Positions 39,479 through 42,492 of a stretch of DNA of 64,000 nucleotides are shown here, in pieces; the stretch's first letter is position 1; each line of letters opens with the position of its first letter. Position numbers and translations under genes: made by a program. Under the pieces are notes generated by a model that saw nothing but the letters and a program-made list of their open reading frames with translations, was not told the DNA's origin and ran no database searches. The DNA comes from Acidimicrobiia bacterium (GTDB taxonomy: Bacteria > Actinomycetota > Acidimicrobiia > Spongiisociales > ZC4RG35), in contig CBDBCY010000004.1 in NCBI GenBank assembly GCA_965203555.1, forward strand, positions 608,001 through 672,000. The letters run 5' to 3'.

Positions 39479-39824
39479 GTGATTCCAGAACCGGGTCTGA
39501 TCAGGGTGCGGAAGTGGATAGACGAACGCAACGCCAGGTTGCCTCCCCCGCGCCCAAGGCCTGATCCGTTACGAGATCGACCTCACCGACTGCGCCATCA
39601 CCATCCTCGAATGCCGACCCCCGTGTCGCGATGACATGGAACCCGATTGGACCCGCCACCCGATCTGTCGTTTCCGCTACACCAAGGTCCGGAACGAGTG
39701 GTCGCTCTATTGGAGAGACCGGAACCTGCGGTTCCACGAGTACGACCTGGTCCATCCCACACCGCTGATCGATGATCTGATCGCAGAAGTAGACCGAGAC
39801 CCGACCTGCATCTTCTGGGGCTGA
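39479..39824 (+). CDS. DUF3024 family protein with one frameshift (extra C at 39545-39549)
   Basis: IRYEID...ITILECRPP...PICRFRY...WSLYWRDRNLRFHEY...DPTCIFWG; N-terminus is in another frame. Confidence 0.75.
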
Positions 39825-39916
39825 TCGCCCAAAGCGACAAACGGAGCCGCCGCCAGCCGTCTCAGGGGTGGTTTTCGGTTGCACAGGCACTCACCCTCAA
39901 CGCATTCGATCCAGGG

Positions 39917-40139
39917 CTACTCCTCAAACTCGTGGGATGAAAAACCCAGTTGCGTGGCGTTTTCCCTGACCACCCTCACTATGCGATCATCGAACTTCTC
40001 GGCCTTGGCGTTCACTTCAAGCGAGATGGTGACCTCGCCAACCCGGCGGAGGTGGGTGACCACCTCTTTGAGAATGCCCTCCAGATCGCGAATGGCCCTG
40101 ACCGAATCCAGTTCAATCTCGCCGTAGAAACGGGTGAGT
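39917..40139 (-). pseudogene. C-terminal remnant of a DUF499-type ATPase gene
   Basis: Hand translation: LTRFYGEIELDSVRAIRDLEGILKEVVTHL...VTISLEVNA...RVVRENATQLGFSSHEFEE-stop. Confidence 0.65.
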
Positions 40140-40629
40140 GATTGAGGCGATGGCGTACGGTCTGCCCTGAGGAGGCTTGTATGGGACTAGTGCCGCATAA
40201 GGCGGCGAATGACGCTTCTGAGGTCATGCGGTGGGGATTGTCACCGGCTGCGATCAACAGGGTGGCGGCAGTGTCGGCGCCGACTCCTCGGGCAGCAAGC
40301 AGCGCCGGGTTGGCCTGGGCGCAGAGACGATGGATCTCGTCACGGTGGGTGTCAACCCCACCAAACACAATCCGGGTTTCTTCTGACATTGCCCTGCTCG
40401 CTCCTCTCAGATACAATTTCGTTCCTGTTCCCCTCTGACCCGAAAAAGCGGTAGACAGTCCACTCACGGTGGGCAGAGCAAAGCTCCTATCAGGTCACAT
40501 CCGCCCTGTCGGGGGGAACACCCCCCAGTCCGAAGGCGGGCCGACAGATCACCGAAAAGGCACCAAGCCAGATCCAGGCAGGGTCAGGCCCGCCCCGGAC
40601 CGGGGAACACCCCACCACTATGAGTGGAT
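40140..40629 (-). mobile_element. IS110-family relic: intact left non-coding end, deleted recombinase, right end lost
   Basis: 40140-40389 encodes GGVDTHRD fused directly to GVGADTAATLLIAAGDNP...FAALCGTSPIQASSGQTVRHRLN; ATC at both junctions. Confidence 0.9.
40410..40615 (-). ncRNA. Predicted IS110 bridge RNA (two stem-internal-loop domains)
   Basis: Stems GGTCCGGGGCGGGCC/GGCCCGCCTTCGGACT and CCGACAGGGCGG/CCGCTTTTTCGG; loop segments match the element junctions. Confidence 0.75.
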
Positions 40630-40938
40630 TCAGGGTAAGGGAGTAGCGAGAAACCCCAGGTCAGAGGGCCAGTCAATAGACAGGAATAGTCAGGGAATAG
40701 TGATTCATCGATAGCATGCGGAAGAAAACTTTGCAGCTCCTTTAGGAATCGGTGGTTGATCCAGCCCAGAGAAGCCAGCGTTGGGATCGCTCCGCCGATC
40801 TCATCATCACGCAAATGCGGTTTCCACCTCTTGACTGCAACAGCCCCACGACCTCTACAATCAACCAACGAGCAACACCGTTAGGAGGCTGCTGATTATT
40901 CGGGAGTGATGTGACCTTCCAACCGGTAGGAGGTGGTT

Positions 40939-42492
40939 CTAATCCACTCTCAAATCCCCAGGGTCCGAGGCCGCCATCGCCGCGATCCGTTCCACCACCT
41001 TCCGGCGGGGCTCTGAACGAGTCCTCTCTTCAATCTTTTCGAATACTCCGGGATCTGCGCCCTCGATAATCGGAACCAGCCCCAGCACATCCTCCACTTT
41101 CGGCCATGCGGCGCCCCTCCCGGCGATCAGTCCGACCGCGACCGGCCACGGGTCATCTCCCGGATACGCCCACGGAGCCTCTCCCGCATCCTCGGCCGCC
41201 CATCGTTCTAGCCGCTCCCGGAAGGAGGAGCGGTCGGGCGACCGGTTTCCTCCAGAGTTCGGCTCGCCACTCACACAATTAAGAATCGCCGATCCCACAG
41301 CTTCGGCGAGAGCAGGGGGCACGGCATTGCCTATCTGCTGAAACTGGCGCGAGCGGGACCCGGCAAAACGGAACGAGTCAGGAAAGGTCTGGATGGGGGC
41401 CGCTTCCCGGACGGTCAAAGTCCGGTGCTGTTCCGGATGTATGTACCAGTACCCGTCCTTGGCGATATGCGCCGTGATCGATCGGGAAAGACCCGACCAG
41501 TCAAGGCGATTGTACTTGTCGTCGAAGATATCGTCCCGGTATCGCTTCACCGTCTCCGGCAGATCCGAATACAGTGTGTCGGATGTCAACAACTCGAACG
41601 CCTCGTGGTCATCTTCCCGGACAGCCCGGGTTGTATGGTCATACACCACGTCGAGGTCACCCTCGGTGCAGGAATTGCGTGCATTTCGGGCGAAACCACC
41701 GATGTCGGATTCGACATACGGCATGATCTCCGATCCGATCGGCGTGTCCGGCGCGATGTCGAGCACCGGCAGATCACCGATGGCATCCCGCACCGTTACC
41801 TGCCCCTCAGGATCGGGCCATTCGAACACAGTTCCCGTGCGAACTCCGACCACTATCAGTCGCTGGCGTGCTGTGGTACGCCATGAACCCAACTCTCAAC
41901 AATCCGGGCGTCCACCTCATATCCGGCGTTCTCCAACCGGCCGATCATCGCCCTGAGTACGATCATGTCATCGGCGAGCGCCATGTCGGGCACATTCTCC
42001 ATGAGAACCGCTCGTGGCCGGACGCGCTCCACGACTTCCAGGAAGGCTCGCCAGAGTTCCTTTCGCATATCGACCGAATCGCGAATCCCCAGATTTACAA
42101 GGCTCCTGATCTTCGACCGACCGGCTCTCGAAAAGGGTTGGCACGGCGGCCCGGCAGCAATCAGATCCACTTCGATGCCGTCGAACAGTTCCACCACCTC
42201 GTTACGAGACTCCTCCACCGCCAAGTCGAGGCCGAGGGCGAGAGCCGGGAAATTGTGAGCGTGACTCTCCAACGCCCATTCATCCGAATCCACGGAAAGC
42301 ACAACCCGGAACCCGGCCGCCTCCAGACCGCAACTCAGTCCACCGGCGCCGGAGAAAAGATCAACGGCAATCGGGAGGGTTGGACGACGCAGCCACGAAC
42401 GCCATTCCGCCCGCGACGGAGCATCGGGATGAAGAGCAAGACGCAACGGCTTCGTGGGCCGCGCCTTTAACCCCGAACCTGCGATCACTCAC
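40939..42492 (-). pseudogene. C5 DNA cytosine methyltransferase with degenerate HhH-GPD-like tail; frameshifted
   Basis: DLFSGAGG, GPPCQPFS, MENV, VPQH/RQRL (shift near 41868), LTVREAA..QTFP, QIGNAVPP; probable second shift near 42468. Confidence 0.85.

Follow-up and report, generated by a model that had tools for sequence, protein, structure and literature searches.

A decayed IS110-group element with its bridge RNA gene in an acidimicrobial genome, read in the light of its relatives' guide code

The bridge RNA scheme of IS621 and the IS110 group (Durrant et al., 2024; PMC11208160) is the closest described counterpart of the element dealt with here. In the parts of that article which set out the scheme, IS621 has a long left end and a short right end, with an RNA encoded upstream of the recombinase gene and on the same strand, and this RNA contains two internal loops, the 5' sides of which have the sense of the top strand (8–9 nt), while the 3' sides are complementary to it (5–6 nt); the family described below shares these features. 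Two preprints, in the sections cited here, report that IS621 recombination needs no more than matches of the core and a single arm (10.64898/2026.08.31.748434) and that partial circles with one matching boundary arise at natural IS110 loci (10.64898/2026.08.14.744561), the half-match products in both being shorter than the element or overlapping it. The window analyzed here is the whole stretch of 64,000 nucleotides from an Acidimicrobiia bacterium (positions 608,001 to 672,000 of contig CBDBCY010000004.1), and positions given without a contig name refer to it. Sequence comparisons identify the feature on the minus strand at 40626–40140 as an IS110-group relic, that is to say a decayed copy. 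The best explanation for the locus as a whole, and a probable one, is that of a dead IS110-group copy carrying a bridge RNA gene and bounded on the right by a deletion, which may well have been directed by the element's own guides.

Remains of the recombinase gene and the guide code of the family

The relic retains the left end, which begins with CACTCATAGTGG at 40626 and runs for 237 nt to the ATG at 40389, followed by 47 and 203 nt of the recombinase gene. These two pieces are joined in frame: the reading frame opens with MSEETRIVFGGVDTHRDE, jumps in frame to ...IHRLCAQANPALL...SSGQTVRHRLN and then runs into foreign DNA. The two losses which a preliminary description of this DNA had recognized in the recombinase gene, namely an internal gap and a 3' truncation, were both found. 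The assignment to the IS110 group made there was borne out by tblastn matches, by PF02371 (Transposase_20; E = 6.4e-11, profile positions 4–57 of 87), and by the model NF033542 ("IS110 family RNA-guided transposase"), with which the fragment scores 47.1 bits, below the 140-bit whole-protein cut-off because only a fragment remains. PF01548 gave no Pfam match in the relic, where just about 16 codons (..GGVDTHR..) of that part are left. In copy C, one of the full-length copies in the same genome, the 404-aa open reading frame (ORF) matches both PF01548 (E = 9.2e-26) and PF02371 and scores 202.6 bits with NF033542, and the right end measures 15 nt from the stop codon, as against the 237-nt left end of the relic. 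The relic is the remnant of an IS110-group member and not a working member, and is presumably now immobile.

In what follows, G000 denotes the window's own genome, G003 that of a congener, and L-numbers the loci of relatives. When the left end of the relic was used as a DNA query against 201 genomes of the same family, matches were obtained in 12 of them, all within the window's own genus, where 11 of the 16 other genomes carry a match; a species-level scan (one genome per species) yielded 80 loci, mostly in metagenome-assembled genomes of Acidimicrobiia. This IS110-group family is common among uncultured Acidimicrobiia of one genus. G000 itself carries eight left ends starting with CACTCATA and ten right ends reading ATAGGAGCATC. 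Several of its copies are full-length, among which copies C and D are identical and copy A is 79% identical, while copy B is broken near its 3' end and copy E gives matches in two frames. In G003 there are three full copies, referred to below as the sister copies, whose left ends are 93.7% identical to that of the relic; the identity to the other family members is 74–81%.

The guides were extracted from the left ends as the 12 nt following G[TC]CTGAC and the 11 nt preceding [CT]TGTCGG, which gave a set of 49 distinct insertions falling into 35 left-guide classes. One spurious match to these patterns, CCCTCATA on contig C4 of G000, which shows no features of an insertion sequence, was excluded before all the counts. 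The left target guide (LTG) agrees with the left junction at 7 or more of 9 positions in 43 of the 49 insertions, and in 31 of the 35 when one insertion is taken per class, as compared with 61 of the 1190 non-cognate pairs. For the right target guide (RTG), the right end was taken to be the first ATAGGAGC found 1300 nt or more past the start of the element, and the five bases following ATC were scored: four or more agree in 31 of 40 insertions and in 21 of 26 with one per class, as compared with 17 of 650 non-cognate pairs. Low scores were obtained for L092 and L096, whose guide is one base longer than the fixed length extracted. The donor guides hardly vary, and the same holds for the element ends: ATAGGAGC fits ...ATAGGAGC-AT and GAGTG fits CACTC. 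Compensatory changes occur nevertheless, since L092 and L096 combine the end CACACATA with the guide GTGTG, and a second, independent change of this kind combines the end CACTAATA with the guide TTAGTG in L099 and L108. These sequence comparisons confirm the guide code from the relatives: the loop-1 guides track the flanks and the loop-2 guides match the ends of the element. The guides thus follow the scheme of IS621, the 3' side being complementary to the right target or to the left end.

All the strings on which the preliminary description relied are present on the minus strand: CCTGAATCCACTCA at 40634–40621, ATCACTCA at 40142–40135, CCTGGATC at 40578–40571, GGTGATC at 40553–40547, ATAGGAGC at 40490–40483 and TGAGTGGA at 40466–40459. 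The 5' side of loop 1 had been said to match the left flank at 7 of 8 positions. Taken over the full guide, the LTG GCCTGGATC agrees with the left flank CCCTGAATC at 7 of 9 positions, the level reached by the 61 non-cognate pairs mentioned above, or at 8 of 9 if the RNA G opposite the bottom-strand T is counted as a wobble; one of the two mismatches is a guide G over a top-strand A, which would form such a G-T wobble with the bottom strand and would thus have a precedent. The 3' side of loop 2 is, as claimed, an 8/8 complement of the relic's own start, since the reverse complement of TGAGTGGA is TCCACTCA, which occupies 40628–40621. The prediction that the lost right end had read ATAGGAGC next to ATC agrees with the ten right ends of G000 and with those of the three 94%-identical sister copies. 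The flanks of the sister copies also follow loop 1, as predicted: these copies lie in CCTGGATC ... ACCG. With a slash marking each junction, the sister copies read TTAGCCTGGATC / CACTCATAATGG ... AAAATAGGAGCATC / ACCGTTTT, ACCGATGG or ACCGTTTT, so that their flanks can be written TTAGCCTGGATC / ... ATAGGAGCATC / ACCG(T/A)T. Their left flanks fit the LTG of the relic at 9 of 9 positions and their own guide at 8 of 9. Close relatives use the LTG in two registers one base apart, L066 and L039 being in the register of the relic boundary.

One locus, L038, departs from this pattern. Its own guides fit its own flanks at only 3 of 9 and 2 of 5 positions, while guides of the L048 type fit the L038 site at 8 of 9 and 5 of 5. 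The first 100 nt of L038, which include the target loop, are 94% identical to those of L062, and the remainder is 64–91% identical. This points to either an exchange of target-loop modules or guidance by the RNA of another element.

Six kinds of empty site were found (Table 1), and in all of them the occupied site is made up of the empty site, the element and a single repeated C, which is the first C of CACTCA at the left and the C of ATC at the right. In the relatives, the aligned sites show that a single C is common to both junctions and that insertion is site-specific without any further duplication. The preliminary description had placed the core within ATC and had given CCTGGATCAC as the ideal target; the empty sites show instead a single C just 3' of the left-hand ATC, and since this C is shared, the ideal target of the relic should be GCCTGGATC-C-ACCGA, than which CCTGGATCAC is one C shorter. 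A TC core was also considered and was rejected, as it predicts one C more at the right junction than is observed. The target pattern CCTGRATCACCG, in which the core is collapsed, was likewise rejected, and its six exact matches in the genome are irrelevant. By analogy, the AT preceding C in the reverse complement of the RTG and the TC preceding C in that of the right donor guide would sit at the positions of the handshake dinucleotides of IS621, as given in the part of the literature cited above. Three exact CCTGGATCCACCG sites are present in the genome, two of them within a repeat, and all three are empty. As regards copy E, its target CATCGTCCA-C-TGGCAAGACGGGG is a repeat with at least eight near-identical empty copies in G000 (e.g., C4:136735 and C4:1263567).

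Fold of the bridge RNA and signals for its expression

RNAalifold, applied to 25 and to 11 left ends, gave a target-binding domain in which a long basal stem is followed by a symmetric internal loop (13+13 nt) and then by an apical hairpin of 3 bp. For the donor-binding domain, constrained folds in which the guides were held unpaired were used together with a hand-written helix, because unconstrained RNAalifold pairs the donor guides with neighboring bases. The combined structure of 32 pairs, which was partly derived from the same sequences on which it was scored, has 92.1% of 789 cells paired in the alignment of 25 left ends and compensatory changes in 16 of the 32 pairs. The observed pairing and compensation values were reached in 0 of 500 shuffles, and sliding the partner by 1–3 columns lowered the pairing to 40–54%. 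Helix 2 of the target domain has 96% of its cells paired and compensatory changes in 6 of 13 pairs, and the basal helix of the donor domain 89.9% (25 sequences) and 4 of 11, respectively. The constrained donor fold is the minimum in most of the 25 left ends and in all five of the intact relatives re-tested. By these alignments, the fold of the target domain and the base of the donor domain are established for the family. Of the two loops of the preliminary description, loop 1 corresponds to an internal loop of the RNAalifold consensus fold and loop 2 probably to another, the basal helix of which is supported by the pair counts, and the stems that carry them covary.

In the relic, the canonical donor fold has a free energy of -27.3 kcal/mol, as against -32.2 for a relic-specific alternative, and is thus 4.9 kcal/mol worse; in the sister, the canonical fold (-33.2 kcal/mol) is the minimum. 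A T in place of C in the conserved CUGUCC is peculiar to the relic and gives the sole G-U at that pair among the 25 sequences; the apical donor segment of the relic is also altered and can pair with the basal strand. The target domain of the relic is the same as that of the sister save for one guide base. According to these models, the guides and the entire target domain are intact in the relic and the donor-loop scaffold is weakened.

In the relatives, there is a TTGACA 14 nt from the right end and, beginning 4 nt into the left end, a CATAAT or CATACT, so that, by analogy with IS621, the family promoter would be assembled only in the circle. This junction promoter cannot form in the relic, because the right end carrying the -35 has been lost. 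A scan for sigma-70-like promoters found none on the minus strand at the left end of the relic, which probably does not produce its RNA in useful amounts. The gene upstream, which is on the same strand as the bridge RNA gene, encodes a C-5 cytosine DNA methylase (minus strand, 40939–42488). It consists of two overlapping ORFs (41856–42488 and 40939–41892) corresponding to the N- and C-terminal halves of PF00145, and looks like a frameshifted pseudogene adjoining the relic.

The right boundary and the history of the relic

The preliminary description had taken the right boundary to be the original right junction of the insertion. However, the homology to the recombinase extends through CGC CTC AAT C, where the relatives go on CGC GGC GGC, and the ATC at the boundary aligns with the recombinase codons CTC AAY C of the relatives. 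On the other side, synteny with G003 resumes at 40138, the window being 90.8% identical to G003 over 1755 columns from 40138 to 38389. The synteny starts inside codon ~1037, i.e., in the last ~71 codons, of a 1109-aa gene of G003 which carries PF18731 (HEPN_Swt1) and PF04465 (DUF499) and adjoins a DUF1156 gene. The right-flank gene is named here from this G003 ortholog because its own 74-aa fragment gave no Pfam family above the cut-off. Homologs of the DUF499 gene were matched in 9 of 61 genomes, with open frames of 1088–1123 aa in several of them. In G000, the first ~1030 codons of the gene were found nowhere, and the search returned just a 54% paralog. The bases CTCACCCG past the junction belong to the DUF499-gene homology. 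Since the ATC lies in recombinase codons and the upstream part of the DUF499 gene is absent from the genome, the alignments show that the right boundary is a deletion boundary and not the right junction of the insertion.

This boundary, which reads GCCTCAATC/ACTCAC, resembles a left junction of the element. Within the relic, the LTG is matched best by GCCTCAATC (40148–40140) and, equally well, by the true left flank, at 7 of 9 positions or 8 of 9 with the wobble, and the ACTCAC directly after GCCTCAATC fits, at 6 of 6 positions, the right donor guide read in reverse complement past the crossover base. At least 7 of 9 matches to the LTG followed by (C)ACTCA were found at seven places in 6,834,522 positions of the genome (both strands), two of which are the ends of the relic. 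The sequence of the junction suggests that the deletion was guide-directed, and we lean slightly towards a direct event brought about by the element's own recombinase and bridge RNA. The two partners would have been a target-like site made up of left target (LT), C and right target (RT), namely GCCTCAAT-C-GCGG in the recombinase gene, and a donor-like site made up of left donor (LD), C and right donor (RD), namely ...C-ACTCACCCG in the neighboring DUF499 gene. Recombination between two such half-matching sites in the same orientation on one DNA would leave an LT-C-RD junction in the chromosome and would take away the 3' end of the recombinase gene and the right end, together with 3 kb or more of host DNA.

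At the left, the 66 nt preceding CCTGAATC belong to a repeat that is present in three copies in the genome; the other two copies (C4:2787968–2788009 and C4:2789492–2789543) go on TATTCG...AAACGGGGGG after ...TTAC. A 635-nt contig from another sample (run X6) is identical to 40635–41000 and departs from the window at 40634. The half-site CCTGAATC still resembles the target of the sister copies (TTAGCCTG[G/A]ATC). Inspection of the sequence revealed no guide-like signature at the internal gap or at the left breakpoint. Among the sequencing runs, X1 covers 39800–41000 without differences but, as a possible source of the window, gives no independent evidence; X2 and X6 yielded short pieces of relatives, and X23 yielded no match. 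The two other copies of the repeat are direct repeats about 1.5 kb apart which flank a 481-aa ORF on the opposite strand, and a similar pair, again about 1.5 kb apart, occurs in G003.

Several points weigh against a guided deletion, or against a simple history of the locus as a whole. Both partner sites would be half-matches only, with 2 of 5 for the right target arm (GCGGC vs ACCGA) and about 1 of 10 for the left donor arm taken from G003, and the in vitro half-site work cited above paired a half-site with a full donor (10.64898/2026.08.31.748434). The deletion requires an ancestral DUF499 site CCA CTC ACC, where G003 has CCG, of which CCA is a synonymous variant; three other homologs have T, T and C at the required base, and the ancestor was not found. 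The scar is one C short of a true left junction, which puts the guide one position out of register, and the boundary was singled out by a reader who had noticed the same resemblance. L095 is a second truncated relative, in which the recombinase gene ends abruptly about 1220 nt into the element and gives way to C/ACTCAACCG; here, too, C/ACTCA follows the break, but the left arm of L095 misfits its guide. The left breakpoint lies, by sequence, 8 nt outside the element, and the 203-nt 3' piece of the recombinase gene shares just 75% identity with the sister and no more than 82–84% with any of the sequences compared. A search of 39800–41000 in Rfam 15 with E up to 10 returned only a chance miRNA match, the presence of a bridge-RNA model in Rfam not being established. 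Also at L095, a nested left end beyond the break was considered and rejected, as the DNA there is not a left end.

What else could have produced the right boundary? An ordinary illegitimate deletion, with no guidance and a purely coincidental likeness to a left junction, would be in keeping with the breaks nearby, i.e., the internal gap and the left breakpoint, neither of which looks guided, and with the fact that this boundary was picked for its resemblance. We nevertheless consider it unlikely, since the signature occurs at only five other places in 6.83 million positions, and the corresponding chance for a random junction, about 1e-6, is still small after allowing for selection among thousands of relics. 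The same junction would result, with the A at 40139 coming from the element, if a second copy had inserted at GCCTCAAT-C in the resident recombinase gene and a later deletion between the CTCA of its left end and that of the DUF499 gene had removed nearly all of it. Members of the family do insert into each other, as L042 did in the right end of another, and half-site insertion into LT-only sites has been reported in the part cited (10.64898/2026.08.31.748434), but three elements and three deletions would be required and the only trace of the second copy would be 5–6 bases, which makes this course of events somewhat less probable still. The reading of the preliminary description, according to which ATC-ACTCA is the insertion's original right flank, with a deletion that ran exactly to the core and both flanks belonging to the original target, can scarcely be upheld. 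It is true that ATCAC is complementary to the 3' side of loop 1 and that the ORFs of the flanks are in frame once the element is removed. Yet the flank predicted is ACCGA, as in three of the three sister copies, whereas the relic has ACTCA, and the match claimed for ATCAC thereby comes down to 3 of 5 bases after ATC, a score equalled by 11.8% of the 650 non-cognate pairs. In addition, the ATC aligns with recombinase codons, the right flank belongs to the middle of a 1109-aa gene and the left flank to an unrelated repeat, and G003 has GCCGCCG before CTCACC, not CCTGAATC.

A separate question is whether the relic descends from one element or from two. A fusion, with the left end and the first 16 codons coming from one family member and codons ~191–281 from another, would account for the high identity to the sister at the left end (93.7%) and over the initial 47 nt of the gene (91.5%), in contrast to the lower identity of the 3' piece, both to the sister and to anything else compared; an exchange of modules also seems to have taken place elsewhere (L038). 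The exchanged part might, however, be the sister's own 3' part, and no intact copy of either parent was found in G000, so that we give a fusion a little less than an even chance. A very different possibility, in line with the suggestion of the preliminary description that the guide RNA might load a recombinase in trans, is that this orphan RNA continues to be produced and that the recombinases of copies A, C and D take it up, in which case it would steer their circles to GCCTGGATC-C-ACCG sites. The donor guides of the relic do fit the ends of these copies (ATAGGAGC and CACTCA), cognate sites are present in the genome, the methylase gene upstream is on the same strand, L038 occupies the target of another member, and in IS621, according to the parts of the article cited, the bridge RNA acts in trans and read-through transcripts are functional (PMC11208160). 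Against this stand the three exact CCTGGATCCACCG sites, which are all empty, and the full copies of G000, each of which sits at a site fitting its own guides. The promoter scan was negative, the canonical donor-loop fold lies 4.9 kcal/mol below par with respect to its competitor in the relic only, the scaffolds are only ~78% identical and the recombinases 75–79%, and L038 can also be explained by an exchange of the first 100 nt. We therefore regard such use in trans as very improbable, and it seems no less doubtful that IS110 relatives with common donor ends pool their guide RNAs, the relics serving as a reservoir of target specificities.

Table 1. Positions and features of the relic and its surroundings, with the empty sites used to place the crossover
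Feature	Position	Strand	Basis or remark
Left-flanking DNA, genomic repeat copy cut short after ...CCCTTAC	40635–40700	-	Sequence comparison
Left target half-site (LT) CCCTGAATC	40627–40635	-	7/9 to LTG; resembles sister flank TTAGCCTGGATC
Crossover C, probably common to target and element	40626	-	From the empty sites of relatives
Left non-coding end with bridge RNA gene, 237 nt	40390–40626	-	Identity to relatives
-10-like hexamer CATAGT	40617–40622	-	Partner -35 TTGACA in intact right ends, lost in the relic
Target-binding domain: long basal stem, 13+13-nt internal loop, 3-bp apical hairpin (predicted)	40522–40606	-	RNAalifold
LTG GCCTGGATC	40571–40579	-	9/9 to left flanks of three G003 sisters
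Right target guide TCGGT-G-AT, reverse complement AT-C-ACCGA	40548–40555	-	Sister right flanks ATC-ACCG(T/A)
Donor-binding domain (predicted)	40426–40520	-	Constrained folds; basal-helix pair counts
Left donor guide ATAGGAGC	40483–40490	-	Identical to relatives' right ends ...ATAGGAGC-AT-C
Right donor guide GTGAGT-G-GA, reverse complement TC-C-ACTCAC	40459–40467	-	8/8 to the relic's own TCCACTCA
First ~16 recombinase codons (MSEETRIVFGGVDTHR...)	40343–40389	-	91.5% identical to G003 sister
Recombinase piece (~residues 191–281 of copy C's 404-aa protein, Transposase_20 part)	40140–40342	-	PF02371, NF033542, tblastn
Pseudo left-target site GCCTCAATC, in recombinase codons, ending at the deletion junction	40140–40148	-	7/9 to LTG
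Right-donor-like ACTCAC directly past the junction	40134–40139	-	6/6 to the right donor guide's reverse complement
Last ~71 codons of HEPN_Swt1/DUF499 gene, remainder deleted	39917–40138	-	Synteny with G003
Empty sites, type of copies B, C and D	Two uninterrupted target-gene copies in the genome
Empty sites, sister type	L050 and G000 C4:2489242
Empty site, L048 type	L093
Empty site, copy A type	G000
Empty sites, copy E type	Many
Empty site, L066 type	L074

Other members of the family and comparison with known systems

Further observations were made on the members of the family present in the genus. In G000, copies D, C and B (C4:1150576–1152037, C4:1961524–1962985 and C4:2912883–2916635, respectively) occupy the same position in a repeated transposase-like gene, which may be ISL3-like and of which G000 also has two uninterrupted copies; copy B has in turn been split by other DNA close to its 3' end. 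The three sister copies of G003 (loci L145 and L146) are 1790 nt long each and have their last 316 nt tandemly duplicated, so that a first right end ATAGGACC-ATC is followed by internal recombinase sequence (GCCTACGTC...) and then by the true right end ATAGGAGC-ATC. L042, the member inserted in the right end of another, has an inverted and truncated left end alongside, and the left guide of L042, TTGACAAAC, is directed at the -35 region of the family right end. A doubled right-end motif (ATAGGAGCATCATAGGAGCATC) is present at a fragmentary copy in G000 (C4:1791202–1791213). Some 8 kb beyond the window, at C4:600020–600135, G000 carries a 117-nt recombinase fragment that is 84% identical to the 3' piece of the relic and is nearer to this piece than any full copy in the genome.

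The genus provides a clean natural test set in which the guide code can be read from the sequence alone, with 49 insertions, 35 left-guide classes and empty sites, and it yields details which set the family apart from IS621, namely the single shared base, the two registers of the LTG and the apparent exchange of target-loop modules. The right boundary may be a scar, fixed in a wild bacterium, of half-match recombination directed by the guides. If so, the event killed the element and removed most of the DUF499 gene in a DUF1156/DUF499 cluster, and its confirmation would mean that off-target bridge recombination shapes natural host genomes, which bears on the fidelity of editing with bridge recombinases. 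This possible guide-directed scar is the one point worth following up.

The kind of system described here is already known: a decayed copy is ordinary, and a bridge RNA is to be expected in an IS110 element. As in IS621, in so far as it is covered by the parts of the article cited (PMC11208160), the recombinase of the family has DEDD and Transposase_20 domains, a -35 in the right end and a -10 in the left end would form a promoter only in the circle, and insertion takes place into repeated sequences. Unlike IS621 as presented there, in which a CT dinucleotide is invariant, the family demonstrably shares one base (C) at its junctions, its left donor guide ends 2 nt before the crossover, its close relatives have the LTG in two registers, and the relic copy is dead. 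An IS110-family small-RNA module without a transposase gene has a parallel in the orphan ssr9 of ISPpu9 in Pseudomonas putida (PMC12288879), but in the sections cited Ssr9 is not a bridge RNA and is dispensable for transposition, and its orphan copies have retained the boxes at both boundaries as well as the ability to circularize, whereas the relic has one end. Among the papers listed on orphan bridge RNAs and on pseudo-site deletions, no title or abstract mentions a natural deletion scar or a trans-acting relic. The supplementary tables of orthologs of Durrant et al. may already include the family. The use of a one-arm boundary is what the relic would have in common with the half-match and partial-circle preprints (10.64898/2026.08.31.748434 and 10.64898/2026.08.14.744561). 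The products presented in the cited parts of these preprints are circles and insertions, LD-only and RD-only, obtained in E. coli or from read data, whereas the relic would be a fixed scar in a wild chromosome that joins an LT-like arm to an RD-like arm and in which both the element and a host gene were destroyed.

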